This document shows, piece by piece, positions 1 through 39,001 of a DNA stretch of 39,001 bases. Made by a program: the position numbers and the translations under genes. Under the pieces are notes generated by a model. The model was given only the letters and a program-made list of their open reading frames with translations, did no database searches and was not told the DNA's origin. How positions within the stretch are numbered: position 1 is the first letter of the stretch; each line of letters opens with the position of its first letter. Where the stretch lies: NCBI GenBank assembly GCA_041308705.1, contig JBFZBA010000061.1, positions 1-39,001 of the forward strand. The letters run 5' to 3'. This DNA comes from Candidatus Altimarinota bacterium (GTDB lineage: Bacteria > Patescibacteriota > Gracilibacteria > BD1-5 > JAGOOR01).

Positions 1-1
1 G

Positions 2-682
2 CATAAAGCTGAAATGGCAGAGGCATTTAAGAAAAACAATATCGACGGCGATCTCCTCCAGGAAGAACAAAACCTCATCACAGCCCTCACCCCGAAATAC
101 CCATTTCTCGCGGGAAAAACTTCTCTTGAGGGATTTCTCATGCCAGATACATACAGGATAACTGGCGGAACAGACCTCGAGACTATGGTAAGTAAAATGC
201 TCGATAATTTCCAGATACGAATCTACGATCCATTTCTCGCCAGTGGCAAACCTGTTGATGCATTTTATGATGTACTCATCCTCGCCTCTATCGTCGGTGA
301 AGAAGAAAAGAGCTCTACTCAGCTCCCGATAGTCGCCGATATTCTCAAGAAACGACTCCGCCAAGGATGGCACATAGGTGCTGATATCACCGTCTGCTAC
401 GCTGAGCTCATACCAGGAAATGAATGCCAAAAATATGTAAACAATCACTATAGCCTGGCAAAAAGTGTTCGTGATGCAAAAAATAACATCTACGATACTA
501 GAACAAAAATGGGGCTCCCCCCAACACCAATAGCCAGCATATCAAAAGAAGCATTTATGGCGACACTTAATGCAACGGCCGAAACAGCAGCATGGTATTA
601 CCTGCATGACTCTGAGGGAATCATACGAACAGCAACGAGCGAAGCTGAACATGAAGCAAACAAGTCAAAATATCTCCGATAA
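2..682 (+). CDS. mltG: Endolytic murein transglycosylase MltG/YceG family, C-terminal part (5' end lies upstream of the window)
   Basis: The frame is open from base 2. Motifs LILASIVGEEE, GADITVCYA, YDTRTKMGLPPTPIASIS and WYYL are typical of YceG/MltG. TAA at 680-682. Confidence 0.8.
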   Translation, partial: HKAEMAEAFKKNNIDGDLLQEEQNLITALTPKYPFLAGKTSLEGFLMPDTYRITGGTDLETMVSKMLDNFQIRIYDPFLASGKPVDAFYDVLILASIVGEEEKSSTQLPIVADILKKRLRQGWHIGADITVCYAELIPGNECQKYVNNHYSLAKSVRDAKNNIYDTRTKMGLPPTPIASISKEAFMATLNATAETAAWYYLHDSEGIIRTATSEAEHEANKSKYLR

Positions 683-691
683 TCACACAGG

Positions 692-1162
692 ATGGATAAA
701 AATACAATCCGTCTCCTCGTGAAGGAAAAAATAGGATCAATGTTGCCTGATTCAAAGACACAGGAAAGTGATGAAGTCTGTCAAAATCTTATACAAAATC
801 TGAATCAAAAAGATTTCCAGGCGCTCATAACCTACGAGCCACTTGCTGATGAAGTAGATATAACCACCATGACAAATTGGTTCCAGAATCAGTGAAAGAC
901 TGTCATAGTGCTTCCTCATCAAGGCATGACAGATATTTCACTACCTGAGAAGAGTCTTATTATAGTACCATGAAGAGCATTTACCATCGACGGAAAGCGA
1001 ATCGGACGAGGTGGTGGATTCTACGACAAACTGCTTGCAAATAATCCAATACTAGAAAGTATCGGAGTATGTTTCGCTTGTCAGATATTTCCAGATATCC
1101 CACAGGACAGCTGGGACCAAGGAGTAGATGAAGTTGTATTTGCAGAGAATACTCTAGAATAG
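692..1162 (+). CDS. 5-formyltetrahydrofolate cyclo-ligase (MTHFS family)
   Basis: ORF 692-895 continues in frame through TGA 893-895 and 971-973. Motif IVPGRAFTIDGKRIGRGGGFYDKLL. TAG at 1160-1162. Confidence 0.8.
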
Positions 1163-1166
1163 TCAC

Positions 1167-2945
1167 ATGAATTTTTGGCAAAAAACAAAACGGTTTTTGG
1201 AACCAGCTTTTGAAGATAAATGGACATTTATTTTCTTGACAGGTATAGCCTCACTTGCAGGAACATCGACATGATATATCCAGATTTACATGATCGAAGT
1301 TATAACCAGAAGTTTCTCCTGAGGGTCTCTAGATAATTTCTGGAATATTTTATGGGCTATAGTCTTTGCCTTTGCGATATCACTGGTATTTATCTGGATA
1401 CTGAGGAATTATGTATGGTGCATACCACAAATAGGTATGGAAAATGCCATGATAAAAGAATATTTTATCAGATTTTTTAAAGGAAATGCCAATACAATAG
1501 AAAATTTCTGAACAGGAAGAATGATAAACATAATCTGAAGTGGGACAGACAAGTGGTCTATGCTCCTCAATGATACAGTAACAAATGTATCTAGATGGGT
1601 GGGATTACTTTCTCTCTCCGTAGTAATACTTGTAAAAATATCGAGCGTATACGTCTGAATGTTCTTCGTCATGTTTGTCTTGATTATGCTCAATCTGGTA
1701 ATTTTTTCACGATATGGATATAACATGCGGCTCAAGAGGAAAAATATATATGTTGAAAAATCAAGGCAGCAGGCAAAGATGATCATGAACAAATTTGAAG
1801 TGCTTCAAAATAACAGAATTTTGTGAGAAATAAAAAAGCTCGTGGATATAAATATAGACATCAGACAAATATCTCAAAAAATACAAAGTATAAATGTAGG
1901 GACCTGGCAAATAAGCAGGGTTATTATTGCAACATTTACATTAAGCATTTGTGTACTGTTCTACGAACGAGCAAAAACTGAAGGGGTTAATCCTTTATTT
2001 ATAGCAGAACTTGGCTCGATTATGTGACTTATGGCAACATTTTCGAGTTATTTTAATCTCCTCATAGAATGGTATATTACATTCACAAAAGAAATAGTGC
2101 ATGTTGAAAAACTTTGGGATTTTATTGATAAAACAGATGAAATCGAATGATACGATCGAGGTGAAAAATTTGAATTTAAAAATGGAGATTACGAATTGAA
2201 AAATTTGAATTTTTCCTATCAAAAAAATAATACAGTCATAAAAAATTTCTGAATGAAGATATCTGGATGAAAGAGGACGGCTTTAGTAGGTCGGAGTTGA
2301 TCATGAAAAACAACCCTCATGAAACTCCTCGCAGGCTACATGAAGCCAACAGGATGAGAGCTCCTCATAGATGGTCAGGATATCTCAAAAATACGACTCG
2401 ATAGCTACTATCCTCATATCGGTTATCTCACTCAGGAACCATCAGTATTTGATGGCACAATAGAAGAAAATCTCCTCTATGGAACAAAGAAAAAACCAAC
2501 AAAAAAAGAAATAGAACAGGCTATAGAACTCGCGGAGTGTCATTTTATTTATGAGCTCGAAGATGGGATAAAAACAGAAATTGGCGAGCGTGGTGTCAGA
2601 CTGAGCTGAGGACAGAAACAACGACTAGCGATTGCAAAAATATTTCTCAAAAATCCGGAAATCATCCTCCTAGATGAACCGACAGCCGCACTTGATAGCT
2701 ACAGTGAGGAGAAGGTGGCAAAAGCATTTGAACACCTCTTCGAAGGTCGCACCGTTATAGTTATAGCACACAGGCTCCAGACAGTAAAATCAGCAGACGA
2801 TATCATCGTCCTCGAAAAATGAAAAATCGTAGAAAGAGGCACACATAAAGAACTCCTCAAGCTATGAAAGAAATACGCTGGTATGGTAGATCTACAGAGC
2901 GGAGTGGTGAAAGAAGGAGACGAAGAATCTTTAATTCAGAACTAA
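1167..2945 (+). CDS. ABC exporter, fused permease plus ATPase (MsbA/ABCB-like), about 592 aa
   Basis: One frame is open from ATG 1167 to TAA 2943-2945 when TGA = Gly (about 17 TGA codons). Walker A ALVGRSGSGKTT has both central Gly as TGA (2298-2300, 2304-2306). Signature LSGGQKQRLAIAK has a TGA at 2607-2609. Walker B ILLDEPTAALD. H-loop IAHRL. Confidence 0.9.
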
Positions 2946-2951
2946 GACACT

Positions 2952-3749: not shown

Positions 3750-3797
3750 CTCATCTATTTTGTCTTTTGTACTTTGTACTTTGTATTTTTAGTTTTT

Positions 3798-6271: not shown

Positions 6272-8188
6272 ATGTCTATCCGAAACTTCTGAATTATTGC
6301 GCATATCGATCACGGCAAATCAACCCTTGCAGATAGGATGCTCGAATTCACAGGAACCAAGGAAAAACGCGAAATGAAAAACAGCCAGATGCTCGATACA
6401 ATGGAGATAGAGCAGGAGCGTGGAATTACAATAAAACTCACACCAGTACGGATGTCCTGGAAAGGAAATGAAATCAATCTCATAGATACGCCAGGACATG
6501 TGGATTTCCAGTATGAGGTCTCGCGAAGTCTGGCATCAGTTGAATGAGTCGTTCTGGTGGTCGATGCAACGCAATGAATCGAAGCTCAGACACTCTCAAA
6601 TCTCTACATGGCGATTGAACATAATCTCGTCATCATACCCGTCCTGAATAAGATAGACCTCCCAAGCGCAGATGTCCCACGCGTCACACGCGAGATAGTC
6701 TCGCTGATAGGTTGCGATGAAGCGGATATCATACCCGTCTCTGCAAAGGTAGGAACCAATGTCGACAAAGTCCTCGATGCTATCGTTGAGCGAATCCCCG
6801 AACCAAGAAAAATAAATCGAAAGTGAGAAATAATTGCAGCGATGCCCCCTTGAGAAAGGGGGGTAGGGGGGATTTGGTGAATTGAAGAAGTCGTTCCAGA
6901 AAGTGTAAAGTTGTGATTAATATTTGATTCTCAGTACGATTCATATCGTGGTGTCGTCATCTATATCAAAATTTTTTCAGGTGAGATAAAACGAGGCGAT
7001 AAAATCACACTCATGAGTACCGACACTGTTGTCGATGTTCTCGAAGTAGGTTGTTTCAAACCAGAATATCACCCACTCCCCTCACTGAAATCATGAGAAA
7101 TCGGCTACATAGTCACAGGAATTAAGACACTGCAAGAAGCCCGCGTCGGAGATACTATTTTTGCCGGTGCACCAGAGTACAAACACCCTATTCCAGGATT
7201 TCAAAAAGTTGTCCCCTATGTCTTTGCTGGAGTCTACCCGGTCGATACAGAAGACTACAACCAGCTCAAGACGGACATCGAGAAACTCAAGATGAGTGAC
7301 AGTAGTCTGACAAACGAACACGAAGTCTCCCCCGCTCTCGGACATGGATTCCGTTGTGGATTTCTCGGACTCCTCCATATGGAAATTGTAAAGGAGCGCC
7401 TCGATCGAGAATTTGATTTGGATGTGATTTTAACATCTCCTCAAGTGACCTATCAAGTGATGATGCCCGGAGACCACAGCCATGAATTCAAGAATACTCC
7501 TCTCAAGGTCGAACAGATTGGAGAAAAAACCTACACCCGCCTCTGGATCAGAAATCCAGAAAATCTCCCAGAACCAGGAACCTACGAATGGATAGAAGAG
7601 CCTATTGTGAAGCTCGAGATAATCACTCGGTCAGATATGGTCGGTGAGATGATGAAGCTCGCTCAAGAACATCGTGGTATCTACAAAAATCAGGCATATA
7701 TCGATGAGAATCGCTCAATCCTGACCTACGAGATACCCATGGCAGAGATTATCACCGATTTCTACGACGAACTAAAATCTCGCTCATCAGGCTATGCGAG
7801 TATGAGCTACGAACAATTGAACTACAAAAGAGACGACCTTGTGAAGATAGATATCCTCGTGAACAACGAGCGAGTCTCAGCTTTCTCAACAATCACACAC
7901 AGAAGTAAATCATTCCATGTCGGAGTTGAGCTCTGTGGCAAGCTGAAAGAAGCCATCCCAAAACAACTCTTCTCTATCCCCATCCAGGCAGCTATTGGTG
8001 CGAAAGTCATCGCTCGTGAAACCATCTCACCACACAGAAAAGATGTCATAGGGCACCTCTACGGGGGCGATGTCACCCGAAAGAACAAACTCCTCGACAA
8101 ACAAAAGAAGGGAAAGAAAAAGATGAAAGAATTTGGAAAAGTCTCAATCCCGAGTGAGACATTTATTGATATTTTGAAGAAAAAATAA
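6272..8188 (+). CDS. lepA: Translation elongation factor 4 (LepA), carrying an extra insertion of about 28 aa after the G domain
   Basis: [30 protein letters not shown] and NKIDL are present. ORFs 6338-6547, 6608-6826 and 7292-8188 are all in frame with ATG 6272. [23 protein letters not shown] and the C-terminal [13 protein letters not shown] are typical of LepA. Confidence 0.93.
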
Positions 8189-10699: not shown

Positions 10700-10948
10700 A
10701 TGGCAGAAAAATTTATACGCTTTTGTATCACAAACATTGTCGAAAACCCTGACGCAGTTTCCCTGGAGATCAAGGAAGATCCAGACGCTACACGCTACCA
10801 ACTCACTGTCCACAGTGATGACATGAAGCGTGTGATTGGTCGTGGATGAAAAACTATCCGAGCTCTCCAATCTCTCGTCCGTATTATCGGCATAAAAAGT
10901 GATAAAAAGCTCTTCTTAAACCTCGTCGAACCATGTTCACCTCAATAG
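10700..10948 (+). CDS. KH-domain RNA-binding protein (YlqC/UPF0109 family)
   Basis: Conserved position after rpsP. Motif MKRVIGRGGKTIRALQSLV, with one Gly of the GxxG loop encoded by TGA. Confidence 0.8.
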
Positions 10949-11445
10949 TCTACGCTCAGACATCCACCTTTGCAGATGCATCTTCTCAGATTTATACTCT
11001 GGAAGAACTCATGACCGTCGGCATCGCTATACTTCTCCTCATCGCTGTTATCCTCACAATTGTGTTCGTACTTTGGTGAGGATTTTTGTTAGTCATTTCT
11101 GGTGGCGATGAACAAAAAGTGCATCCGGCTATCAATATGATTCGTTATTCGCTTATTGGTCTCATCGTGATGATTGTGATTATCCTCGTCACACCTGCAG
11201 TCTCTCGAGCAGTAGGATTTGAATCAATCGGTGAGAAATTCAGTCCAGGAAATATATTCCAGACCATGAAGTGCGTCTCTGATCGTGTATTTGGAAATAC
11301 TGACCAATCATGTTTTGCTGTCGCAAGCGGACAAACAGGTTTTTCATCAAACAGCTCATCATCAGGAATTCCTACTTTCGGAGGAAGTCGTAGTCAAGGC
11401 GGAAATAGTCCAAATGGTGTCGGGAACTGGACAGGAGATCTCTAA
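10933..11445 (+). CDS. VirB2/TrbC-like (T4SS-pilin-like) two-TM protein with a Gly/Ser/Asn-rich tail
   Basis: ATG 10933 is in frame with ORF 11086-11445 via TGA (VLWGGFLL). The arrangement is a hydrophobic helix, the loop SGGDEQKV, then a second hydrophobic helix. The gene overlaps the KH gene by 16 nt. Confidence 0.55.
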
Positions 11446-11454
11446 ATAATATCC

Positions 11455-11982
11455 ATGAAGCTCATCGTCGGTCTCGGAAATCCATGAAAAGAATACAGAG
11501 AAACTCGGCACAATGTCGGGTTTCTTTTTGTGGATGATCTCGCCTCTCAGATGAGTGCAGAGGAATGGAAAAAGTGATATCAGTGACTCCATACTTCGTG
11601 TAGTCTCGAGTGAACCAAGTGTATTCTTCTGAAGCCTGAGACCTACATGAATCTCTCCGGTAAAAGTGTCCAAGCCTGTGCATCATTTTTCAAAATAGCA
11701 GCAAAGGATATCATCATCATCTCGGATGACATAGATATGGACTTTTGAAAGGTGCGATTTCGTGAGACAGGAAGCGGTGGCGGACACAATGGTATCAGCT
11801 CGATTATTGAATCATTGGGAACAAATAATATCAAACGAATTAAAATAGGTATAGGCCGACACCCTCACATGGATGCAGCAGATTGGGTACTCTCAAAGTT
11901 TACAAAAGAAGAAAAGGACCAACTCGAAGATATATTTATTGAGGTAGAGAAGAAATTACTGGAAAAAATCTCGTCGGATTAA
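11455..11982 (+). CDS. pth: Peptidyl-tRNA hydrolase
   Basis: [23 protein letters not shown] (TGA at 11485-11487), [20 protein letters not shown]. Confidence 0.92.
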
Positions 11983-12239: not shown

Positions 12240-12379
12240 CTCGCTTTTTACAAAAAAATCCCTATAATTCCCCTGTTTCACTGAGAGGACTCTCTGGATT
12301 TGCTCGATGACTGAAGTTTTCAGTTATGGCGTAAGTCTAGGCTCTTCCCTTGAAGCGCTTATTTTCTTCATTTTTTCTT

Positions 12380-14527
12380 ATGATTTCAGGTATTCGCGAC
12401 AACAATGTCGGAGAGATTACTCCGATTTCGAAGTCTTATACTATCGCTGGTAAGATATACACTTTTGAGACTGGTACATTTGCCCTCCTCATCGATGGAG
12501 CCATCACGATCAAGGACGAACTCGGTCATGTCCTCCTCACCACAGCTGGTGTCAGCAAAAAAGGTAAAGCAGGAGCTGACTGGTTCCCTCTCTCTGTCGA
12601 CTATCAGGAGCGTTTTTATTCTACTGGTCATATCGGTGGTGGACGATTCAACAAGCGTGAAGCTCGTCCGACGACTTCTGCTATTCTCAATTCTCGTCTC
12701 ATCGATCGACCTATTCGTCCGATGTTCCCAAAAGGCACAACAAACGAAGTCCAGATCATCCCAACTATCTACTCTGCGACTGGTAAACAAGATTTCGGTG
12801 TCTGGGGTATCGCTGGTGCGAGTATCGCTCTCCAGCTCGCTGGTGTTCATCAATTTGAAGACGCAGTCTCTGGTGTCCGTCTCGCAGTTATGGAAGACGG
12901 TGGTATGATTTTTGATCCTACCTTTGAAGAAATCAATAACGCTCTCTACGAGCTCGTCGTCGCAGGTACAGCAGATATCATCACGATGGTTGAAATGGGC
13001 GGTAAGGAAGCAAGTGAAGAGATGATTATGCGTGGATTTGAGTACGCTCAGAAAGTCCTCGCAGAGCTCTCTGCAGCTCAGAAAGACTTCATCGCGACAG
13101 TAGAGGCAAAATACCCTATCACAAAGATGGACCTCGATATCAAGGCTGGGGTAGCTGGTCTCGAGGAAAAAGTCTTCGCAGTACTCTCTGCTGAGAAAAT
13201 CGAAGCACTCTACAATATTGGTAAGATAGATTTTCACCACAAACTCGAGGAAATCATCGAGGAAGCAAAAACAGCTCTCGGCTACACAGAGGATACAGAA
13301 GAATTGAACGGCAACGAAATCGGTGAACTCGTTTACAAGTTCGTCAAAAAAATCATGCGTAAAAACATCCTCGAATCAGGTCGTCGTCTCGATGGTCGAA
13401 AAGGTGACGAGGTACGCCCTATCATGACAGAAGTTGGTCTTCTCCCTCTCACGCACGGTTCAGGTCACTTCCGTCGTGGTGTCACATCAGTCCTCTCTAT
13501 CGCTACTCTCGGTGGACCTCTCGATAACGAGCTCGTCGAAGGTATGTATCCAGAATACGAACGACGCTACATGCATCACTACAACTTCCCTCCATACTCA
13601 GTCGGTGAGATAAAGATGATGCGTGGAGTTGGTCGTCGTGAAGTCGGTCATGGAAATCTCGCTGAAAAAGCCCTCATGCCTGTCCTCCCAAAAATAGAAG
13701 AATTCGGTTACACAGTCCGTGTCGTCTCTGAAGTCCACACCTGTAATGGCTCGAGCTCTATGGGCTCAGTCTGTGGATCGACACTCGCCCTCATGGATGC
13801 TGGTGTCCCTATCACAGCACCTGTCTCTGGCGTCGCTATGGGTATGGTCTTCGATGATGCAACTGGTAAATATGTCGTCCTCTCAGATATCCAGGCTCAA
13901 GAGGATTTCCTCGGAGATATGGATTTCAAGGTCGCAGGTACTCGAAAAGGTATCACAGCGCTCCAAATGGATACAAAGATTGACGGTCTCACGCTCGCAA
14001 TCGTCCGTGAAGTATTCGAACAAGCAAAAGGTGCTCGAGAATTTATCCTCCAGGGTATGCTCAAATCTATCGAAACTCCTCGTCCAGAAGTCTCTCCTCA
14101 CGCTCCTGCACTCATCTCTATGAAGATCGACCCATCAAAAATCGGTATGGTCATCGGTAAAGGTGGTGAAACTATCCAGGACATGCAGAAATACTTCGGA
14201 GTAGAAATCTCTATCGAAGACGATGGAACCGTCGTCATCACTGGTCCAAGCAAAGAAGCTGGTGAAGGTGCGAAAAAAGCTATCGAAAATATCGTCCGTG
14301 ATATCGAAGTCGGTCAAGAATTCGATGGTGAAGTCGTGAAAATCCTCGAAGGTGTCGGAGCTATCGTCGAAATCGGTGGTGGCAAGTCTGGTATGATCCA
14401 TATCAGTAAGCTCTCTGATAAGCGAGTAGAACGCGTAGAAGATGTCGTCAACACAGGAGACAAAGTCCACGTAAAAGTCATCCAGGTCGACAACGACAAA
14501 GGACGAATCGGATTGCAGAAGGTATAG
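12380..14527 (+). CDS. pnp: Polyribonucleotide nucleotidyltransferase (PNPase)
   Basis: Two RNase PH domains plus KH (GKGGETIQ) and S1 (GMIHISKL) domains. The ORF is uninterrupted. The start is taken at ATG 12380 rather than the upstream TTG. Confidence 0.95.
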   Translation: MISGIRDNNVGEITPISKSYTIAGKIYTFETGTFALLIDGAITIKDELGHVLLTTAGVSKKGKAGADWFPLSVDYQERFYSTGHIGGGRFNKREARPTTSAILNSRLIDRPIRPMFPKGTTNEVQIIPTIYSATGKQDFGVWGIAGASIALQLAGVHQFEDAVSGVRLAVMEDGGMIFDPTFEEINNALYELVVAGTADIITMVEMGGKEASEEMIMRGFEYAQKVLAELSAAQKDFIATVEAKYPITKMDLDIKAGVAGLEEKVFAVLSAEKIEALYNIGKIDFHHKLEEIIEEAKTALGYTEDTEELNGNEIGELVYKFVKKIMRKNILESGRRLDGRKGDEVRPIMTEVGLLPLTHGSGHFRRGVTSVLSIATLGGPLDNELVEGMYPEYERRYMHHYNFPPYSVGEIKMMRGVGRREVGHGNLAEKALMPVLPKIEEFGYTVRVVSEVHTCNGSSSMGSVCGSTLALMDAGVPITAPVSGVAMGMVFDDATGKYVVLSDIQAQEDFLGDMDFKVAGTRKGITALQMDTKIDGLTLAIVREVFEQAKGAREFILQGMLKSIETPRPEVSPHAPALISMKIDPSKIGMVIGKGGETIQDMQKYFGVEISIEDDGTVVITGPSKEAGEGAKKAIENIVRDIEVGQEFDGEVVKILEGVGAIVEIGGGKSGMIHISKLSDKRVERVEDVVNTGDKVHVKVIQVDNDKGRIGLQKV

Positions 14528-14558: not shown

Positions 14559-15002
14559 ATGATCTTCTGATTTTGGATTATAGTTCTGATAGTAAACTCC
14601 TCAGAGCTCTCAAATGAAACATTAGTCGTTTGTAATCTTCTGTTCATACTAATCTTCATAGTGCAATCGTGAATTAAATACATGCCTCAATTAATGGGGT
14701 TATATATATTCAAGAACAGTGTGATAAATAAAAAATTAAGCTTATATATTGCAACAACTGATAGAGAGTATCTTGAAAAAATGATTGATGGTAGGGATGA
14801 TTTTGATGGTATTTACTGAGAATGTCATGAACGATTCCTTAGCCACATTTATGAAAGTGATAAATATGAGAAAGATGAATTAGAATATTACGACAGTAAT
14901 CTGGCAGAAAAGAATTCTTGAAAAATATATCATAAATGGGGATTTTGGAACATAATCATTTCTCACACTATACTCTTTGCCTTACTTGTAAGTAATCTTT
15001 AA
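14559..15002 (+). CDS. Hypothetical membrane protein (147 aa; the start could instead be ATG 14683)
   Basis: The frame is open with 4 TGA = Gly and ends at TAA 15000-15002. There are hydrophobic N- and C-terminal segments. The sequence is AT-rich. Confidence 0.4.
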
Positions 15003-15517
15003 TGGAAAATAATCCAAACCAAAATTACTCTATATGAGAAGATCCTCGTTCTTTCTTTAAAAATTTATTAAAGGATGATCATAAGTACTTACAAGAAAGT
15101 GCTGAAAAGTGGGCAGAGAAATTAACCTACGATTTAAGCAAACAAATAATTCAATTTAATTTCTTGTTTGTCGCTTTTGTAACAACTTTACAGGATGAAT
15201 TTACAAATAAAAATCTGCTATACATATCAATTATACTAAGCATATTTTCAATTATTTGAGCTTTTTGGTATCTTAATTTAATTTGCAACGAAAACATAAA
15301 AAGCATGAACAAAAGAAATGATATAGTAGAAAAAAGTTTAGAAAAAATAAATAAATGAGAGGACCCTCTTTTAGTACTTCCGGCACACAATGTAGAAATG
15401 TCTTACGCAATGTGATTACTGAGATGAAAAGAGGTATTTTTAAGAATTCTACAAAGAGCAGTTATTTTATGATTTATAGGTAGCTTAATTGTAGGAGTAG
15501 TTTGAATGTTGGGCTAA
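15002..15517 (+). CDS. Hypothetical membrane protein (171 aa) with a central TM hairpin and a C-terminal TM segment
   Basis: The start overlaps the previous stop (TAATG). The frame is open with 6 TGA = Gly and ends at TAA 15515-15517. TM segments: IIQFNFLFVAFVTTL, LLYISIILSIFSIIGAFWYL and AVILGFIGSLIVGVVGMLG. Confidence 0.45.
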
Positions 15518-19823: not shown

Positions 19824-19846
19824 TTTATTTTTTACCCCTTATTTTT

Positions 19847-20554: not shown

Positions 20555-20654
20555 AATTAAAAAGGCTAAGAAGTAAGAGAGAACAGTATAGAGGAGAAGT
20601 CATTTTCTCACAAAAGAAAGCTTGCATCAGATATTTTCCCAATACAATCCCTCT

Positions 20655-21878
20655 ATGCAAAACGAAAAAACACTCCTCTACGCTCAAGCTCTAGAAGCAT
20701 TCAAAAACATATCTCTCACAACTCGTGAAGAGAAAAAAGCGATACCAGAAAACTATATAGTCGCAACCCATGGACCAGCTCTCGCAAAAGTCCTCTGTGA
20801 TACCCCAGAGACGCTCAATATGATAGGTATATACCGGGTCAATTGTTCACATATTGGCAAAGAATCAGATCTAAATGCCCTCGCAGAATATCTCAGAATG
20901 ATTCATAAATTCGTCCCTATTCTGATAGATCTCCAGTGACCAAAACCTCGTATTCACGAGATGGGACTAGAGGGTGATATCATAGTACAGATCGGAGAAA
21001 TGCTCGAGGTCACATATGCGCCAGCGACTTCAGAAGAGCGATTTTGTGAACCAGGTAAGCTCCGTGTCTGTTTTCCACAAATTATCGAAGTCATGCAGGT
21101 AGGTGATGTCGTGATATTCGATGATGGTAAGATGTCTGCCACAGTCCGAGAAAAGTCAGAAGACAGAGCTGTCATAGAATGCACAGAAATCCTCTCAGGA
21201 AGTAATAGTTTTGTCCTGGGTGGTCGCAAATGAATATGCGTCCGCAATCGTCCTCTTGGTATTGAGTGTATCACAGAACATGACAGAAAAAGCATCGAAT
21301 TTGCTCGAGATATTCTCGGATTTGATTTTGTCGACAATATCATGGTCTCCTATTTCAGCACTCCAGCTGATATAGATAATTTCATACGGATCATGCGTGA
21401 CGAATACCACTATACTGGCAATCTCTGAGGAAAATTTGAGACACCTTATGCAGTGCTCAATGCTGAGGAAATACTCTCCAAAAATGAGCTCACTCTCGCC
21501 ATGCTCGGTCGAGGTGATCTCCGTGTTGAGATGGACCCACGAGCTGTAGTAAACATGCACGATATACAAGCACATTTCTTTGATTCATGCAAGAAACACG
21601 GTGTCGAATCTATCTGTGCAACAGGATTTCTCGAGAGCATGCTCACACCAGAAGGCACAGTCACGCCAGAAGAAATATACGATATGGAAACATCAATGAC
21701 TACATGACCCGATCATCTCATGCTCTCAGGGGAATCAACCTACGGCGCACAAGCGCGAGAATCAATAGAGCTCGAGTGTAACTATCAGAGGAAAATGCTC
21801 GAGAAACTCCAAAGCTGAGTAGTCTCATACAGAGATACTCCCACTCTAGAACTCCGAGAACTTCTCTATATACTCTAG
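20655..21878 (+). CDS. pyk: Pyruvate kinase-like enzyme lacking the C-terminal regulatory domain
   Basis: RVNCSHI, IDLQGPKPRI (Gly = TGA 20937-20939), GGKFETPYAV, MLGRGDLRVE, ATGFLESML, MLSGESTYG. It ends about 40 aa after the last motif at TAG 21876-21878. The start is ambiguous (TTG 20622 or ATG 20655). Confidence 0.7.
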
Positions 21879-23312: not shown

Positions 23313-25973
23313 ATGTCTCTCCTTACTCGCCTCTTTGGTGACCCAACAATAGTCATACTCCACGGATATCAGAAAGACCTCATAAAAATCAAAAAAATCG
23401 AGGAAGAATACCAGAAAACAATCGATAATCTCGGTGCTGTGAAGTCAAAAACAGCGGAATTCAAGTCACGATTTGAGCCAATTCGTCTCGCGTTTATCAC
23501 AGAAAAAGACCGAATCAATAATGATGTAGTCCTTGGTCTCGCAGAAAAAGCAGAAGCACACGAAAAAAATAAAAAAACATATATCCAGTCTCGTGAGGCC
23601 ATGGTACAAAATATCCGTTTTGAAGCACTTGCATTACATCGAAGAGCAAGTGAACTGATTTTCGGGCAAGAATTCACACTCTCAGATGGGTCACAGACAG
23701 TGTGGAACATGATACCATTTGATGTCCAGCTCCTTGGTGCCCTCACACTCAATGGTGGAAATATACCAGAAATGCGTACAGGTGAAGGTAAAACACTCGT
23801 GGCAACTCTCGCAGCCTATCTCAATGCCCTCTCAGGTGACCCTGTCCATGTCGTCACAGTCAATGAATACCTCTCTCGTCGTGACGCAGGAGAGATGAGT
23901 ATCATCTATGGTGCACTGGGCCTCACAACAGGTGTGGTGCTCAATAGCCAGCCACGCGATGAAAAGAGAAAAAACTATAACTGTGATATCGTTTATGTGA
24001 CCAATACAGAGCTTGGATTCGACTATCTCCGTGATAATATGGCACCATCTGTGGCTGATCAGGTCATGTCTCGCCGTGCCTTTGCCATCATCGATGAGGT
24101 GGATTCGATTCTCGTGGATGAAGCTCGTACACCGCTCATCATATCATCCCCTGACAATGAGCCTACTTCGAAATATCTCAAGTTTGCACAAATGGCAAAT
24201 AAGCTCTCACATCCAGAGCACTACACAGTCGATGAAAAGACAAAAACAGTCGCGCTCACAGAAGAAGGTATCGAGAGAATAGAGAAATCTCTGGGGATAG
24301 AAAACATATTTGTCTCAGACCACTACAATGATCTCCATCACATAGAAAATGCTCTCCGTGCAAAAGCATGCTACATACGCGACATCGACTACCTCGTTCG
24401 AGGTCAGGATATCATGATTATCGACGAACACACTGGTCGTGTCATGGAAGGGAGGAGATTTAGTAATGGTCTCCATCAAGCACTCGAAGCAAAAGAAAAT
24501 GTCACAATTCAACGAGAAAGTAAGACTCTTGCAAATATCACTTACCAGAACTTTTTCCGCCTCTATGAGAAACTCTCGGGCATGACTGGTACAGCAAAAA
24601 CAGAAGAGGAAGAGTTCCAAAAAATCTACGGTCTCAGTGTCGTACAGATACCTACGAACAAGCCTCTGATTCGTGATGATCGTGCTGATCTGCTGTTCAA
24701 AAATGAAAAAGGGAAATTTGATTACATCGTCGGTGTTATTGAAAAAATCCACGCAACTGGACAGCCTATTCTCGTCGGTACGGTCTCCGTCGCAAAGTCC
24801 GAGCTTCTCTCTGACATGCTCACAAAGAAAGGCATCAAACACGAAGTCCTCAATGCAAAACAAGATGCTCGTGAGGCTGAGATAGTCGGGAAAGCTGGTC
24901 AAAAAGGTGCTATCACGATAGCTACCAATATGGCAGGTCGAGGTACAGATATCAAGCTGGGCGAATGAGTCGCAGAGCTGGGTGGCCTCGCGATACTCGG
25001 TACAGAAAAACACGAAACTCGTCGTATCGACAATCAGCTCCGAGGTCGTTCGGGACGTCAGGGTGATCCTGGTATGAGTCAATTTCTTGTATCTCCGAGT
25101 GATGATATCATGCGTATATTTGGTGGAGATAAGCTCTTCTCAATGTTCAATTCACCATTTTTTGCAAGCCTCCCTGAAAACGAACCACTCATACAAAGCC
25201 GGACTCTGACAAAGAGAATTACTGCAATCCAAAAACAGGTTGAAGGGCGACATTTTGACATGCGAAAACATGTCCTCGAATATGATGATGTCATGAACCA
25301 ACACCGTCTCATCGTCTACGGTCGTCGACAGAAAATGCTCGAAGATTTCGCAAAAAATGACGATAGTGGCTCTGATATAGACCTCCAAATTGAAAAAATA
25401 TTCCGAGATGAAGCTGAAAGAATAGTTATGCGGCATCAGGACGAGGAACAGAAAGTCGATACAGAGAATCTCTCTGCGAGTCTGAGTGATATTCTCAAAA
25501 ACACTGTGACTCTTCAGAGTAGTGATTTTGATGAAGTGAGAGACGAAGTATTTTCTCTCTGGTCAGAGAAGCTCAGAGAAGTACAAAAACTCTTTGCAGG
25601 GAGAAATTTTGACCAATTTCAGAGAGAGATATATCTTGCAGCAATCGATCAGTTGTGGATGGAGCACATAGAAAAAATGGCAAATCTCCGAGAAGATGTC
25701 GCGTTTGAAGGATATAATCAGAAACAACCTCTTCTCGTGTACCAAGAGCGTGCGTATGAATTTTTCATCCAGATGATGGATGAAGTAAATTATCGCGTTG
25801 TTCGAGGTATCCTCTCAGCAAAAGGAAACACTCAGGTACAACAAGTAGAAATCAATCTCGATAACCTGCAACAAATAGGCGCAGCTCCAACATCAGGTGG
25901 GCACCCACTTTTTCGTCAAAAGTGACCACCTAATGAGGATGAAGAAGGTATCAAGGTGATACGAATAAAATAA
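23313..25973 (+). CDS. secA: Preprotein translocase ATPase SecA
   Basis: [68 protein letters not shown] (TGA 24966-24968), RGRSGRQGDPG. It extends through TGA 25923-25925 to TAA 25971-25973. Confidence 0.95.
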
Positions 25974-27578: not shown

Positions 27579-28556
27579 ATGGATTACTTTATAAAAAACA
27601 TCCGCCAATTTCTCCCACATATAGCATTTTGTGTACTATTGCTCATAATTAACACCTCCTGGGCAGCTGGTGTGACAGGTATAGGAAATGCCTCGAGCAC
27701 GACTCGGAACCTCGCGGATAACTCTCTCTTCCGCCCTGGTTCTGGAGATCTCGTATGAGCAGTTCGAAATGTCGCTCTCGATATCATCCGAGCTGTGCGT
27801 ATTATCCTGAATGGTATTGCTCTTCTCGCGATGCTCTATGTCGGATTTCTCTGGGTGAGCAGTATGGGCAATGAAGAAAAACGAAGTGACGGAACATATC
27901 GGATACTCCTCATTGTCATAGGGCTTTTCCTCATAAATGTCGCAGAGCTCCTCTACAATATCATTACTGGTAGTAGTTATCTGAGTAGTGGGTTTAGCCG
28001 TAAAGTATGATCGATATCAACGAGAGATCCAGGTGGAGAATTTAGCCAATCAGCACTTGAAACATGTAATTACTTTTTCTGCCCACAGAATTTCTGGGGA
28101 AATGGAAGCGTTATCGCTATAGTAAAATTCTTCGAAATGGCCATGATAGGTACTGCTGTCGTGATGTTTACCTGGGGATGATTCACTATGTTATTTGCAG
28201 GGAACAATGAAAATACATCAAAAACTGCAAAAATGAGACTGGTATATGGAGTGATTGCTCTCGTTGTCGTAGGATTTATAGAGTCTATCTATCGTGCTAT
28301 ATTTTTCTGAAGAAACCTCAATACCACAGGGCTCATGAGTGTGCTGGTAGCAATAGCAAATTTCTTCCTATTTATGGCAGGTCCCATCGCTATAGTCACC
28401 ATCATCATAGGATCATACTACTATATCACTGCAGCAGGAAATGAAGAACGAGCCGACAAAGGCAAAAAAATAATTCTCTATACATTTTTTGCCACTATAC
28501 TACTCATACTCTCATACACACTCCTCATAGAGCTGATATGACTTAATCTCTTCTAA
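27579..28556 (+). CDS. Polytopic membrane protein with three tandem VirB2/TrbC-like pilin modules, 325 aa
   Basis: ORFs 27795-28010 and 28335-28541 are in frame with ATG 27579. Only TGA interrupts the frame; I translated the junctions by hand. The helix-loop-helix module occurs three times, with loops SMGNEEKR (aa 95-102), AGNNENTSK (aa 207-215) and AGNEERADK (aa 286-294). Confidence 0.6.
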
Positions 28557-28559
28557 ACT

Positions 28560-29003
28560 ATGAAAAAAATATATATACTCATCGCAGCGCTCATTGCCAC
28601 ATCCGGCGTATTTGCGCAGTACCAGCAGGATAATCTCCCTCCAGGGCTCCTCGGTAAAAATCTAATGATTACTACCTACACTGCCAATCCAGATATAGAA
28701 AATAAAAACTGTATACTTATTTCATGACGAGGCCAAACAGCGAGATACAAGTGCTATATTTCAGCATCAAGTGGATTCATAGATTTCATCGCTAGTATAT
28801 ACAAATATATCTTCTTTATCAGTCTCGTCATAGGCGTTCTCCTCATGGTCATACTAGGCATAGGCATGTCTATCTCCGGAGTCGCAACCGAAGAAATCAA
28901 AAACAAGGCAAAAGCCAAAATCATGGACATACTGATTGGTCTCGTGGCTCTCGCTCTGGTCCCATGGATACTCAAGACTATAGCTCCGTTCTTCTTTAAA
29001 TAG
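28560..29003 (+). CDS. VirB2/TrbC-like pilin-like protein with signal peptide, 147 aa
   Basis: MKKIYILIAALIATSGVFAQ signal peptide. The C-terminal module is VLLMVILGIGMSISGVATEEIKNKAKAKIMDILIGLVALALV. One TGA codon. TAG at 29001-29003. Confidence 0.55.
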
Positions 29004-29310: not shown

Positions 29311-29423
29311 AGTATGCCCAATAGTACAAATTTCTTGCATTTCGCAAGATTTTTATATCATGTCACCCGTTGGGAGTTCGCATTTGCGCAACGCTCGCAC
29401 CAATATTTCTTTATTTTTCTTTT

Positions 29424-30113
29424 ATGCCAAGAGGCAAAAAATACAACGCTGCCATCAAATTCATTGATGAGGGCAAGACATACAGTATCGAAGAAGCTAT
29501 CACGCTCCTCGAAAAAACCAATTTCGTGAAATTCGACCCAACAGTCGAGATTCATTTTAGACTCGGTATCAATCCCACACGAGCTGATCAGATGATCCGT
29601 ATGGGTATGACTCTACCCCACGGGACAGGGAAAGATATCAAAATTGCTGCTTTCACTGATGCAGGTGATGAAAAATCACTCATATCAGGTGGTGCACTCG
29701 TGGCTGGTGGTGATGATCTCATCTCAGGTATCGAATCTGGTTCTATTCCTACCAATTTTGACATCGCTATCGCTACACCAGCTATGATGCGCAAAATGGG
29801 TAAAATTGCTAAGGTTCTCGGACCAAAAGGGCTCATGCCAAATCCAAAGTCTGGAACAGTTGGTGATGATCTCACAGGTATTCTCAAAGAACTCAAAGGG
29901 GGTAAGTTCGAAGTAAAAAATGATAAACAAGGTGGAATCCACGGAGTATTTGGGAAGCTGTCATTTGGGTCAAAAAAGCTCACAGAAAATCTCGAAAATT
30001 TCATCCAGCATGTCAGAGAGGCTCGTCCGTCAGGACTCAAACCAACAGCTACTTTTATAGAGGCTGTCTATGTCTGTACCGCTATGGGGCCTTCTGTTCC
30101 TGTAAAAATCTAG
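29424..30113 (+). CDS. rplA: 50S ribosomal protein uL1
   Basis: MPRGKKYNAAIKFID..., VEIHFRLGINPTRADQMIRMGMTLPHGTGK, LGPKGLMPNPKSGTV. Confidence 0.93.
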   Translation: MPRGKKYNAAIKFIDEGKTYSIEEAITLLEKTNFVKFDPTVEIHFRLGINPTRADQMIRMGMTLPHGTGKDIKIAAFTDAGDEKSLISGGALVAGGDDLISGIESGSIPTNFDIAIATPAMMRKMGKIAKVLGPKGLMPNPKSGTVGDDLTGILKELKGGKFEVKNDKQGGIHGVFGKLSFGSKKLTENLENFIQHVREARPSGLKPTATFIEAVYVCTAMGPSVPVKI

Positions 30114-30130: not shown

Positions 30131-30985
30131 TTAAGCTCTCTTTGAGAGCTTTTTTTGTGCAAAAAATAGAGCCGCAGCGAGAAGAAGAAATAAAAGAATT
30201 CACTCTGGACCTGTATGTGGAAGTATATCAATAGGAACTGGTTCGGTGAATACAGGCTCCGTTGGCTCCTCTTGAAGAGTCTCAGGAGATGGTACGATAT
30301 CTGGAGACAGTGTATCGAGGGGAGGAAGTACACCCCCGTAGATAACCTTGAGCGGTATACGATTTTCAGAAGGGAGCTCACTACCATCGAGAGAAGTGAC
30401 CTTCTGAAAAGTGAGCTCATACTGACCATCGAGTTCCATCTTCGACTTGAGTGTGATAATTATGATACGCAGATCGTTCGGAGAATTTTTGATTTCTTGT
30501 ACTTGGAGAGGTTTTTTTGTGCTGAGATTTGTAAGAGTTATCTGAGTTTTTGAAGCATCTATCGGACGAGAAAATCACAACTCCAGAGTTGTCTCACTAC
30601 TGACAAGTGGATCTCGAGCGAGATTCATCTGTGGGGTAGCGGAATAGGTGCGCACATGAAGCGGAATCGTTGTGCCTATTTCTTTTCACTCGGCATTATA
30701 GCCATGGACTTTGATTGTGTATTCTGTTGCGGGAGAAATCTGTGTTAGTTCACCTTCTGTCGTTGTGATAAAATCAGTATCCAGGAGGAGACGAGGATTA
30801 GTAGGCTCGAGAAGAGCGCTCTCGTCATAAAATATCTTATACTGGGTTGCTTCTGGTATGGGCATCCATGAAACAGTCATGGAAGTATCGGCTATTTTCT
30901 TTGCTTGGAGGATACTCTGAGAAGAATCAACTGCAAAGACCGAAGAGACTATTGCAAGAAAGAGGAGAATATATACTCTGTACAT
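30131..30985 (-). CDS. Sortase-anchored surface protein: signal peptide, FN3-like domain, Ig-like domain, Pro/Glu-rich linker, LPXTG sorting signal
   Basis: Start at MYRVYILLFLAIVSSVFA (30985). The FN3 pattern is TSMTVSWMPIPEATQYKIFYDE...ATEYTIKVHGYNAEGKE. ORFs 30686-31312 and 30200-30439 are joined through TGA codons. The C-terminus is LPHTG-PEGILLFLLLAAALFFAQ-KKLSKRA, followed by TAA. Confidence 0.7.
30133..30157. terminator. Intrinsic terminator after rplA; the hairpin also encodes the C-terminal tail of the convergent LPXTG gene
   Basis: AAGCTCTC-ttt-GAGAGCTT followed by TTTTT. Confidence 0.65.
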
Positions 30986-31004
30986 AAAAATAATTTTTGA
31001 ATAA

Positions 31005-31652
31005 ATGTACTGAAATACTACACCAAAAACACTTTTTACGAAAGGAAAAAGGACAAGAACGGCGTGATTTACACTTGTAGAAATAATGATTGTCATTGTA
31101 ATCATAATTTTGCTGACACAGCTCGGCAATATAGGAGGATTATTTCGTACGCGCGAGCGCAATAAGGTTGAAGAAATAGCTGTAAAAATAGTGGCAGCTA
31201 TCGATGAAGAAAAAGTAAATGCCCTCCTCGGTAAAACACTTGATGGCAAAATAGTAAGAAAAAGGCTCGCTGAGCTGAATTTCTGAGCGACACCAAACAC
31301 CATCTCCTTCACTTCAGCAGTAAATCTCGCAGAAATAGATGAGGCTACCTATGATGCGGCCTCAAAAATAACAAAGTCATGGTCCCTTGCTGCACTCGAA
31401 TCCGAGCTCTATAAGTGTTCGTCAACAGCAACTCCGATAGAGATTGAAAAAATAGAACTCGAATTTAGAAATGATACAATAAAATTTCTTATAAATGACC
31501 CTGCTATAGAGATTCCTAATCATATAGTACTCCTCCTCAAGCATACAAATACGGCCCATGAGATACATATAGACAGGAGAACTGGGCTCACCTACGAGAG
31601 AAAAAGCCCTGGTAAAAATACTGATGGCACCTGGCAAGTACTTTGTAATTAA
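31005..31652 (+). CDS. Type IV pilin / pseudopilin with class III signal peptide
   Basis: MYGNTTPKTLFTKGKRTRTA-G|FTLVEIMIVIVIIILL, where the -1 Gly is TGA at 31065-31067. The frame stays open through TGA 31284-31286 to TAA 31650-31652. Confidence 0.75.
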
Positions 31653-32113: not shown

Positions 32114-32671
32114 CTAAGCGCGACCAAGATAATCGTAAGTACGGCTATCAACTCGGACTTTTTCACCCTGTCCAATAAAGAGTGGAACTTTGATTTCGAG
32201 ACCGGTATTGAGTGTTGCTGGTTTCAGATTATTTGAAGCACTATTCCCCTTCTCTCCTGGCGGAGTATCGACGACCTCAAGTATTACAGATGGATCTATC
32301 TGCACATTGATAGGATTACCATCCCAGAACATAACTGTAGTCTTGTTTCCTTCAACAAGGAAATACTTCTTATCACCGATAACATCAGCGGTAATGAAAT
32401 AACTATCATAGCTGGTAGTATCCATAAAGTGATACGCAGTACCATCAAAGTACTGATAATCAGCATCTCGCATCTGGATATCAGCTGCTTCGACTTTATC
32501 CACAGCATGAAAAGTTGCTTGCATTGATTTGCCATTGAGGAGATTAACGATAGTACACTTTTCCATACCTTTGCCCATTGCTACCTTGAGGTGTTCAGAT
32601 TTTGTAACTTCGTACGGTTGACCATCTACGATGATTTTTTTACCGACTTTGAGTTCGTCCATGCTAGCCAT
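32114..32671 (-). CDS. efp: Translation elongation factor P
   Basis: The ORF is uninterrupted. Motifs LKVGKKIIVDGQPYEV, TPPGEKGNSASNNLKPATL and VPLFIGQGEKVRVDSRTYDYLGRA. Confidence 0.95.
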   Translation of the reverse strand: MASMDELKVGKKIIVDGQPYEVTKSEHLKVAMGKGMEKCTIVNLLNGKSMQATFHAVDKVEAADIQMRDADYQYFDGTAYHFMDTTSYDSYFITADVIGDKKYFLVEGNKTTVMFWDGNPINVQIDPSVILEVVDTPPGEKGNSASNNLKPATLNTGLEIKVPLFIGQGEKVRVDSRTYDYLGRA

Positions 32672-32814: not shown

Positions 32815-34800
<1,986 letters not shown>

Positions 34801-34915
34801 ATGAGTGAGAGGGAAAATGATAAGCAATGTCGTGCCCAAGTATATGAAAAAGTTTTGATTTGCAAAAACAGAAGAGTCGATAAAATACCTAGAATTTCTC
34901 GTATAATAATTGACT

Positions 34916-35674: not shown

Positions 35675-35688
35675 AGTACACTGTTGGT

Positions 35689-36048: not shown

Positions 36049-36745
36049 GAAAAAACTCCTCAAAGAAGACCTTGGAAATAAGAAAAAACTCCTCGATATT
36101 ATAGAGAATAATCGTTTTAGAGCTGCTATTTTCTGATCTGCCAGAATCACACCAAACGACACAGTGTATCAGGAAATCGTCGAGCTCGCAAAAAATCTCT
36201 CAAAAAGTAATTATGACATCGTGACAGGTGGTGGCCCAGGCGCCATGGAGGCAGCATCAAAAGGGCACGCACTCGCAGAAAAATCATGCACAAAATGACA
36301 ATCCATAGGTATTAATATAGAGCTTCCTTTTGAACAAAATCCTAATAAATATCTCGATTTTACTGAGACCAAAAGCACATTCTCAGCAAGGCTTGATACT
36401 TTTATGATTCTCTCCCATGTTTTTATCATTACCCCTGGTGGCATAGGTACACTTCTCGAGCTCTTCTACACCTGGCAGCTCATGCAGGTAGGGCATGTCT
36501 GCAGAACCCCCATTATCCTCTGGGGAAATGGCTATAAAAACCTGAAAAAATTTCTCAGAGAAGAGGTGTTGGCTCATGGGTATATGACTGAGCAAGACTA
36601 CGAGATGACCATACAGGTAGAGTCCATAGAACAAGTTCTACAACTCATCAATATGGCACACCGACACCATGAACAAGCATGAGAAAATGCCTGCGTCAAT
36701 ATAAAACAATATATCGCAGGAGCCAAACAACTCGGACTCATCTAG
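36038..36745 (+). CDS. LOG-family (TIGR00730) nucleotide phosphoribohydrolase
   Basis: AAIFGSARI (Gly = TGA), [28 protein letters not shown]. The gene overlaps the DUF1622 gene by 11 nt. It is extended through TGA 36680-36682 to TAG 36743-36745. Confidence 0.8.
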
Positions 36746-38085
36746 AATCCAACTCGAGTCGTATCAATTTCTCGGAATTTCATAAATTTCCCATCGAATA
36801 TAAAGTCCGCATTCCCGACAGGACCATTTCGGTTCTTTCGGATAAATATGGTTGTCTTGCCTTTATTCATATCATTCTCCTGCATTTCTGCATTATTATA
36901 ATACTCTTCGCGGAATATCATGAGGACGATATCCGCATCCTGCTCGATAGATCCAGACTCACGAAGATCGGAGAGAATTGGTTCTTTGCTTGCACGACTC
37001 TCAACAGCTCGAGAGAGCTGAGAGAGAGCTATAATTGGAATATTGAGTTCACGAGCGAGAGATTTGAGTCAGCGAGATATATCAGATATTTCCTGCACGC
37101 GGTTCATAGGATTTGTTCCCTGTATGAGCTGGAGGTAGTCAATCATGACCATATCGAGGCCTGATTCTATCTTGAGACGACGACACTTTGATTTGATTTC
37201 GAGGAGCGTCATGCTCGCAGAATCGTCGATGTATATGTGTGAGGTGGAGAGCTCAGAAAGCGCGTCACCGATGCGGGCAAATTCATCATCAGAAAGCTCA
37301 CCTTTTTGGAGCTTCCAGGAATCGATACCCATGGCAGCACAGACCATACGATCAGTGAGCTGTTCTTTGCTCATCTCCAGAGAGAAAACGGCAACATTTT
37401 TCTTTTTTGAAACATTTTGAGAAATATTGAGAGCCATCGCGGTCTTACCCATCGATGGACGAGCAGCGAGGATGACGAGATCACCTCAACGAAGTCCCTG
37501 AAGTTTATTGTCGAGATTGCGGAAGCCTGTCATGATGCGAGAGTTTTCGATTTGCTTCGGATCTTCATGAATTCACGCATATTCCTCATATCTCAGATCA
37601 AGAATATCGCGTATATGCGTAAGCCTGTTTTTGATGAATGTCTGTGTGATTTTGAACAGTGACTGTTCTGATTTCTCGAGGAGAGTGTTAATTTCAGTTG
37701 CCTCATCAAAACCAAACGATGCAATGAGATTACCGGTATTGATGAGCTTTCTGAGGACTGATTTTGCCTTAACAATTTGTGCATATTCAAATACATGAGC
37801 ACTCGTCGGAACAGCAATAGTGAGGTCAGCCAGATACACATTTCACCCCACAGAATCGAGCTGACCGAGATTGGTCAGAGTTTCAGAAACTGTGACGATA
37901 TCTATAGGGCGGTTCTTGCGATAGAGCTCCAGGATAACAGAATAGATAGTACCGTGGCTCTCATCATAAAAATCATCCGAGGCGACAATATCTGCGACGC
38001 GAATGACTCCTTCTTTGTCTATCAGAAGAGCACCCAAGAGGCTGCGTTCTGATTCCAGGGATGAAGGAGGTATCTTTGCTGACAT
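36742..38085 (-). CDS. dnaB: Replicative DNA helicase DnaB
   Basis: [103 protein letters not shown]. Four TGA = Gly codons. The stop CTA at 36742-36744 overlaps the LOG gene stop. Confidence 0.93.
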
Positions 38086-38093
38086 AGGGAAAA

Positions 38094-38954
38094 TTATCGA
38101 CTAGAGAGACGCTTTGAATCAGGATGAACACCGAGTTTTTCCTCTACTTTTGGGAGCCACACATGGACCACTTCATTATAGGGTTCGAGCTTACGAAGAG
38201 TGAGAAATGTATCATACGCCTTCTGATCTGAGCCAACCTGGAGATGAGAAAGCCCCAGAATTTCAAAGCCTCGAATGCTCTTTGGTTGAGTCTCTGTGAG
38301 CTGCCGAGAGTAGATGAGCGATTCTTCGTATTCGTGGAGCTCATACGCGAGCTCAGCAAGAGTCTCGAGGAGTTGCACATTACGAGGTTCTTTTTCGAGA
38401 CCTTTTTTAAATATATCATAGGCGAGCATATCCTTTCCTTGATGAATGAGATTATTGCCGAGGTAGACATATGCATCTGCTCTCTTTGGGTCATGATGGA
38501 GGATGATATCACGGAAGAGGATTTCTGCTTTTTCATAGTCTTGCTCCATTTCATAGAGCTGAGCGAGGAGGATATTGAGGTCTTCATTATGACGATCTAT
38601 CATGAGACCAGTGATAATCTCAGCACGCGCCTCTTCGTATTCACGCACGACGAGTTTTGCTTGAACGGATTTAAATATTGATTGAAGGGCGAGCTTATCT
38701 TTTGCTGATATTTTCTTCTTCATACCATTGAGAGACACATCATCACGACGGGTCTGATAATCAACTTTCTTCTGTTCGATAGTATGTCTGCGTCGGATAC
38801 GAGTCCTCTCTTTTTCTTTGAACATCTTAAATTCACGCCAGCTACCAACCTTGGACCAAAGCCCGTGACCAGTGTGAAAAAATATATACGCAACACCCGA
38901 AAAAATAAGGAACAGCTCTAACCACAAAAGATTGTAAAAAAGAATGAAACCCAT
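38094..38954 (-). CDS. Membrane-anchored TPR-repeat protein
   Basis: N-terminal TM segment LWLELFLIFSGVAYIFF, then a basic linker and several 34-aa TPR-like repeats (e.g. AEILFRDIILHHDPKRADAYVYLGNNLIHQGK). Confidence 0.75.
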   Translation of the reverse strand: MGFILFYNLLWLELFLIFSGVAYIFFHTGHGLWSKVGSWREFKMFKEKERTRIRRRHTIEQKKVDYQTRRDDVSLNGMKKKISAKDKLALQSIFKSVQAKLVVREYEEARAEIITGLMIDRHNEDLNILLAQLYEMEQDYEKAEILFRDIILHHDPKRADAYVYLGNNLIHQGKDMLAYDIFKKGLEKEPRNVQLLETLAELAYELHEYEESLIYSRQLTETQPKSIRGFEILGLSHLQVGSDQKAYDTFLTLRKLEPYNEVVHVWLPKVEEKLGVHPDSKRLSSR

Positions 38955-39001
38955 GGGAAGTATTAGAGAATTGGTGAATTAATGAGATTCTGTATGCGTT
39001 C

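Follow-up and report, generated by a model that had tools for sequence, protein, structure and literature searches.

UGA almost certainly encodes glycine in the 39,001-nucleotide stretch of DNA described here (the window), and UAA and UAG would then be the sole terminators, as in NCBI translation table 25. The window is the whole of contig JBFZBA010000061.1 (C61) in assembly GCA_041308705.1 of Candidatus Altimarinota bacterium, which comprises 887,693 bases in 82 contigs, with 42.3% GC and 89% completeness. There is also very little doubt that this contig is chromosomal and belongs to a Gracilibacteria genome (BD1-5-type, candidate phyla radiation) that uses table 25. The original prediction, made from the letters of the window, had read UGA as glycine (code 25). 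This reading is upheld by TGA codons that face glycine in homologues, by a tRNA with anticodon UCA, and by release factor 1 (RF1) as the only class-I release factor, release factor 2 (RF2) not having been found.

Sense TGA restores full-length genes

Open reading frames (ORFs) of the window were called again under alternative tables, as the original prediction had proposed. Table 11 yields 76 ORFs with a coding density of 0.77, a median length of 96 aa and three ORFs of at least 300 aa. With TGA as a sense codon there are 41 ORFs, the density rises to 0.91 and the median to 258 aa, and 14 ORFs reach at least 300 aa. The controls, TAG as sense (70 ORFs; density, 0.82; median, 114.5 aa; four ORFs of at least 300 aa) and TAA as sense (72 ORFs; 0.85; 119.5 aa; five), failed to lengthen the ORFs, and the rescue is therefore specific to TGA. 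Tables 4 (UGA as tryptophan) and 25 give an identical ORF structure.

Under code 25, about 30 ORFs have Pfam matches that cover the family models end to end, including those of an ABC exporter, LepA, Pth, PNPase, pyruvate kinase, a photolyase, SecA, a STAS-PilT ATPase, L1, EF-P and FtsH. Greedy longest-ORF calling in code 25 also returned some spurious antisense ORFs, such as 11089-11922 on the minus strand over pth, and the final list consists instead of 36 curated genes guided by Pfam. At least one TGA lies within 25 of the 36, for a total of 112 TGAs or 13.4% of glycine-type codons. The earlier claim that genes end in TAA or TAG once TGA is read through describes all 36, which close with TAA (24) or TAG (12) and hold no internal TAA or TAG. 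Co-directional gene junctions are tight, with 0-31 nt or short overlaps after TAA or TAG.

TGA codons face conserved glycines

The ORFs of seven E. coli K-12 regions (the ribosomal operons, rpoBC, the pnp-ftsH region, the dcw-secA cluster, lepA, pth-prfA and the dnaA-atp region) served as tblastn queries, and the entire genome, translated with TGA as a stop, was the target. After antisense removal, in which the best match per genomic place was kept, 102 alignments covering 27,423 codons remained. They contain 186 in-frame TGAs, 156 of them opposite an E. coli residue and the rest opposite gaps. Glycine stands opposite 94 of the 156 (60%) compared to a background of 8% (binomial p ~1e-61), the outcome on which the original prediction had staked its reading. 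Tryptophan, which it had named as the residue that would speak against glycine, stands opposite none. E. coli Trp is opposite TGG 51 times and opposite TGA 0 times, while Cys faces 2 of the 156 TGAs. Within the window, 14 of 20 aligned TGAs are opposite Gly. In the 64-codon table, TGA (0.60 Gly) is indistinguishable from GGT, GGC, GGA and GGG (0.62-0.71), and all 61 sense codons keep their standard meaning, including CGA (opposite Arg at 0.55, n=375) and CGG (0.55, n=44). Among the aligned codons TAA occurs 0 times and TAG four times. TGA at glycine positions and never at tryptophan therefore points to table 25, not table 4.

An apparent excess of arginine opposite TGA in the first tblastn count was rejected. 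It arose from antisense E. coli ORFs matched to the antisense of orthologues, through the serine codon TCA against TCG or TCT, and was gone once the single best match per genomic place was kept.

All nine TGA codons named in the original prediction (Table 1) have the correct coordinates, frame, strand and peptide context. They had been assigned to conserved glycines, and seven of the nine are opposite Gly in E. coli orthologues when TGA is masked, either as X or as a stop symbol. TGAs 2298 and 2304 (Walker A) and 2607 (LSGGQ signature) of the ABC exporter are opposite Gly of E. coli PstB. Of the five Pth TGAs, one of which is the GNPG site at 11485, four are aligned with Gly in the E. coli enzyme and the fifth with a gap. 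Three TGAs of ftsH are opposite Gly of E. coli FtsH, as are 6545, 6575 and 7094 of lepA in E. coli LepA, where 6914 is opposite Ala. Pyruvate kinase TGA 20937 is opposite Gly in the PDB pyruvate kinases 3t05 and 7oo1; masking TGA as X in these alignments puts Gly opposite residues 106, 204 and 362, and Phe or Met opposite residue 269. In SecA structures of the Bacillus type (e.g. 1m6n), the residue opposite TGA 24966 is the Gly of KLGEGV. The alignment to E. coli SecA, in which this codon lies beside a gap and opposite Ala, was set aside; PDB SecA sequences give Gly. TGA 31065 of the type IV pilin-like gene supplies the -1 Gly of the G/FTLVE prepilin cleavage motif and lies within the Pfam N_methyl match, which scores 22.4 bits against a cut-off of 21.2.

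Exchange with GGN codons was seen in 21 relatives obtained through FtsH, in which the window TGAs of ftsH and efp were compared. The relatives carry GGN or TGA in 77 of 81 cases (GGA, 35; GGT, 15; TGA, 14; GGC, 7; GGG, 6), another codon in four, and never TGG. In the reverse comparison, GGN or TGA occupies 73 of 90 sites, with TGG at 0. Since TGA and GGN exchange among relatives, TGA behaves as a synonymous glycine codon in this lineage.

A candidate UGA-decoding tRNA

A search for a tRNA with anticodon UCA, which the original prediction had called for, returned one such gene among 36 ARAGORN tRNAs. It lies outside the window (C64:11100-11178), 15 nt upstream of tRNA-Gly(GCC) on the same contig. 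Its ends read GCGGGGG...CCCCCGC-U-CCA and provide G1:C72, C2:G71, G3:C70 and the discriminator U73, which are the criteria of Shulgina and Eddy for tRNA-Gly(UCA) (PMC8629427). ARAGORN labels it tRNA-SeC(tca), a label that derives from the anticodon alone. Among the models of the Rfam tRNA clan, the general tRNA model matches it best (43.4 bits). Its acceptor and T arms are in a 7/5 arrangement, and its variable region, of 4 nt, has no long extra arm. Full-length copies were recovered from 39 of the 41 genomes sampled in the order. Across 12 distinct sequences, 98.9% of cells are paired, with compensatory changes at six pairs.

The sole tRNA-Trp has anticodon CCA and G73, and tRNA(UCG) has A73 and A20, as expected for an arginine tRNA. 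Glycyl-tRNA synthetase (GlyRS) is of the dimeric type and single-copy (C74:4968-6395), and glyQ was not found in the genome. A search for MnmE, a U34-modifying enzyme, gave partial GTPase-domain matches only. From what is established for such systems, tRNA(UCA) would be charged with glycine by this single GlyRS and would pair with UGA at the ribosomal A site, and with RF2 gone there would be no competitor for UGA.

The tRNA(UCA) of this order is unusual in build. Its 79 nt include an encoded CCA, its D-loop (AAAUGAGCGA) is without the usual GG (G18-G19), and it is at most 67% identical to any other tRNA in its own genome. An extra nucleotide in the anticodon arm forms either a 6-bp stem, from C29-G47 to G34-C42, or a bulge. 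The anticodon arm is nearly invariant over three families (relatives L092-L121), and the extra stem pair is uninformative because it does not vary. In contrast, family f13, which belongs to another order of the same class and also uses code 25, has a canonical-looking tRNA(UCA) of 74 nt that is closest to tRNA-Gly(UCC) and just 63% identical to the tRNA(UCA) of the present order. BLAST with the 79-nt tRNA gave no match beyond the order, and the f13 tRNA(UCA) was reached by a covariance model. In family f26 (genome G043), no tRNA(UCA) was recovered among the loci fetched. No description of the difference between the f13 tRNA and that of the present order was found in the literature searched. 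It is conceivable, if rather doubtful, that the order's UGA decoder is a strongly derived tRNA rather than a glycine tRNA with a mutated anticodon and little else changed, and that it was recruited or replaced repeatedly or owes its odd build to adaptation, for example by limiting UGG misreading. The difference from the f13 tRNA may also reflect nothing beyond fast divergence.

Release factors and termination

One class-I release-factor locus was found (C14:5596-6651). It carries PET at the tripeptide position together with GGQ and holds two TGAs; at 457 bits it passes the cut-off of the prfA model, and at 267 bits it falls short of that of the prfB model. RF1 is thus the sole class-I release factor found in the 89% complete genome, in line with the RF2 loss that the original prediction had proposed to look for. 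Of 61 genomes sampled from the class, 47 carry a true prfB. Among those that lack it, an RF1 gene with 2-16 in-frame TGAs occurs in the present genome, the four sampled from family f2 (the same order), the four of f13 and one of f26. No RF2 was found in the four other same-order genomes sampled, and their RF1 genes hold 5-16 in-frame TGAs.

Termination was assessed in conserved genes, namely 36 whose alignment extends to the C-terminus of the E. coli orthologue. TAA comes first among stop-like codons in 26 of them, TAG in seven and TGA in three. Two of the TGA-first cases occur before the expected end and one 34 codons past it, leaving none at the expected end. Nothing in these conserved genes points to UGA also acting as a terminator.

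Alternative readings of UGA

If UGA stood for tryptophan (table 4), as it does in Mycoplasma and in some endosymbionts of insects, the ORF structure would be the same as with table 25. However, UGA at Trp positions and a UGA-reading tRNA-Trp, by which code 4 is recognized, were not found. Trp lies opposite TGG and never TGA, relatives exchange TGA with GGN and never with TGG, and the sole tRNA-Trp carries CCA and G73, whereas the UCA tRNA combines U73 with a Gly-type acceptor stem; we regard tryptophan as exceedingly improbable. A dual role, in which UGA is glycine within most genes and a stop at the end of some, such as horizontally acquired ones, draws on SecA and pyruvate kinase, each of which has a TGA 16 codons ahead of its TAA or TAG. 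In secA this is the second TGA. Against such a role, none of the 36 orthologous C-termini has TGA at the expected end, with TAA or TAG first in 33, no RF2 was found that could recognize UGA, and the co-directional junctions of the window are tight after TAA or TAG. A dual role is therefore very unlikely.

The ARAGORN label and the possible 6-bp anticodon stem, a feature of tRNA-Sec, could suggest that TGA specifies selenocysteine or is read through at a low level. Yet SelA was not found in the genome and SelB gave no match over the cut-off. The 7/5 arms, short variable region and general tRNA model argue against a long-armed tRNA-Sec, 112 TGAs are spread over 25 housekeeping genes of a single 39-kb contig, and Cys is opposite TGA in two cases only instead of UGA occupying Cys or Sec positions. 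The chance that selenocysteine or read-through accounts for the TGAs is vanishingly small. The fragmentation of most genes under table 11 would also follow if the code were standard and the genes were pseudogenes or disrupted by assembly errors. Only TGA interrupts the genes, however, with TAA and TAG all but lacking from the aligned codons, and zero frameshifts are required. Relatives show the same pattern with synonymous TGA-GGN exchange, the genome has a tRNA to decode the codon, and no RF2 was found, so that there is practically no prospect of the standard code being right.

Several points weigh against glycine. About 40% of aligned TGAs are opposite a non-Gly residue in E. coli, which is the same rate as for GGN codons. 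TGA 6290 of lepA (6290-6292) lies opposite a conserved Ser in the G1 region (IRNF-S-IIAHID in E. coli). The tRNA(UCA) is without the anticodon bases C35 and C36, which are normal for bacterial GlyRS recognition, and for this reason its charging with glycine is only inferred. RF2 is not found rather than proven absent, given 82 contigs and 89% completeness. Finally, the assignment for the present organism is made from sequence.

Uneven use of TGA

UGA is an ordinary though disfavoured glycine codon in this genome. Genome-wide, TGA makes up 2.1% of Gly codons in the genes for ribosomal proteins, EF-Tu/G, RNA polymerase, SecY/E and NusG, compared to 10.8% in other conserved genes (Fisher p = 6e-14), which amounts to an approximately five-fold avoidance in highly expressed genes. 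The window genes range from pnp, rplA and efp, highly expressed core genes that hold no TGA, to orphan ORFs in which TGA makes up 42-70% of glycine codons (Table 1). This unevenness is consistent with a weakly decoded codon that is shunned by highly expressed genes.

Codon preference is also strong, and unusual for a genome of 42% GC. CTC accounts for 1757 of 2335 aligned Leu codons (about three quarters), and ATC and GTC are dominant for Ile and Val in the genome codon table.

Genes of the window

The features of the window are collected in Table 1. LepA has an insertion of about 30 residues (window 6800-6900) between the G domain and domain II that is absent from E. coli LepA and contains three TGA codons near 6824-6878. 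The STAS-ATPase gene is a single ORF, with the N-terminal STAS domain followed by a T2SSE/PilT-type ATPase, and is itself followed by two T4SS_pilin-like ORFs; another such ORF lies ahead of pth. The 616-aa ORF with a rhodanese domain, a YgaP-like transmembrane segment and a metallo-beta-lactamase domain adjoins a TauE sulfite exporter and a thioredoxin, which suggests a sulfur-handling cluster. On the minus strand, the ORF matched by fn3 (about 30655-30910, 33.4 bits) would overlap the 5' part of the pilin gene, which is on the plus strand, if the ORF were started at its first GTG. The real start of this ORF probably lies downstream of 31005, and the plus-strand ORF 30215-30748 is probably spurious.

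Table 1. Features of the window and their TGA codons (code 25)
Feature	Position	Strand	Length (aa)	In-frame TGA	TGA among Gly codons	TGA named in the original prediction	Pfam match or domains
ABC exporter	1167..2945	+	592	16	34% (16/47)	2298, 2304, 2607	ABC_tran 2-137/137, ABC_membrane
lepA	6272..8188	+	638	8			GTP_EFTU through LepA_C, full length
T4SS_pilin-like ORF	10933-11445						T4SS_pilin-like
pth (peptidyl-tRNA hydrolase)	11455..11982	+	175	5		11485	Pept_tRNA_hydro 1-166/183
pnp (PNPase)	12350..14527	+	725	0	0/81		Pfam-matched
Orphan ORFs	14559-15517 and 36679-38178				42-70%
Orphan ORF	15002-15517			7	7/10
Rhodanese ORF	17178-19028		616				rhodanese, YgaP-like transmembrane, metallo-beta-lactamase
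TauE sulfite exporter	19038-19823						TauE
Thioredoxin	19736-20161						thioredoxin
Pyruvate kinase	20622..21878	+	418	5		20937 (DLQ-G-PK)	PK 5-327/328
secA	23313..25973	+	886	2		24966	SecA_DEAD, P-loop_SecA, SecA_PP_bind, SecA_SW
STAS-ATPase ORF	26058-27572						STAS (residues 10-107), T2SSE/PilT-type ATPase (residues 155-437)
T4SS_pilin-like ORF	27579-28556						T4SS_pilin-like
T4SS_pilin-like ORF	28560-29003						T4SS_pilin-like
rplA	29370-30113			0	0/29
fn3 ORF	30131-31312	-					fn3
ORF, probably spurious	30215-30748	+
Type IV pilin-like gene	31005..31652	+	215	3		31065 (G/FTLVE)	N_methyl (residues 17-36)
efp	32114-32671			0	0/15
ftsH	32815..34839	-	674	4 (34071, 33831, 33567 and one more)		34069-71, 33829-31 (TCA on the plus strand)	FtsH_ext, AAA, AAA_lid_3, Peptidase_M41

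Lineage and related codes

The closest FtsH relatives (79-90% identity) are metagenome-assembled genomes (MAGs) titled Candidatus Gracilibacteria bacterium, some of which bear automatic 'Peribacteria' labels. The lineage is Gracilibacteria rather than Absconditabacteria/SR1, because CGA and CGG still stand for Arg in the present genome. The original prediction had placed the contig in Gracilibacteria and SR1/Absconditabacteria together; its first half is supported by the FtsH relatives, and its second half is disfavoured by the arginine meaning of CGA and CGG.

Table 25 was published in 2013 and received proteomic confirmation in 2014. UGA as glycine is described for Gracilibacteria and Absconditabacteria by the same tRNA criteria in PMC8629427, which cites Campbell et al. 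2013 and Rinke et al. 2013 for table 25. Metaproteomics of a BD1-5 bacterium gave 97 peptides unique to a UGA-Gly database versus three unique to a UGA-Trp database (PMC4032931), and recent surveys take UGA as glycine as given (PMC13092985). The present genome resembles the table 25 systems of Gracilibacteria (BD1-5/GN02) and Absconditabacteria (SR1) in having UGA at glycine positions of standard-code homologues, a UCA tRNA with the glycine identity set, RF2 missing with RF1 kept, and UAA and UAG as terminators, in a candidate phyla radiation genome of ~1 Mb; by FtsH identity it also falls within these lineages. Nothing essential differs, although the tRNA(UCA) of the present order is atypically built. 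An extended code with UGA as glycine and CGA/CGG as tryptophan has been predicted for Absconditabacteria (Shulgina and Eddy 2021, PMC8629427). The glycine meaning of UGA is shared with that code, but CGA and CGG are opposite Arg at 55% in the present genome and do not read as Trp. With table 4 of Mycoplasmatales, Entomoplasmatales and insect endosymbionts, the genome shares a sense UGA and RF2 loss, whereas here the amino acid would be Gly, not Trp, and the decoder a Gly-type tRNA.

For annotation, gene calls on this contig and across the genome need table 25. Table 11 splits 25 of the 36 genes, and under it fusions and domain architectures would be misread. The reading of UGA as glycine is correct and useful for annotation, and it is already known, the recoding of the lineage having been described since 2013. 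Only two leads are new: the atypical build of the order's tRNA(UCA), and the fact that highly expressed genes avoid UGA roughly five-fold.

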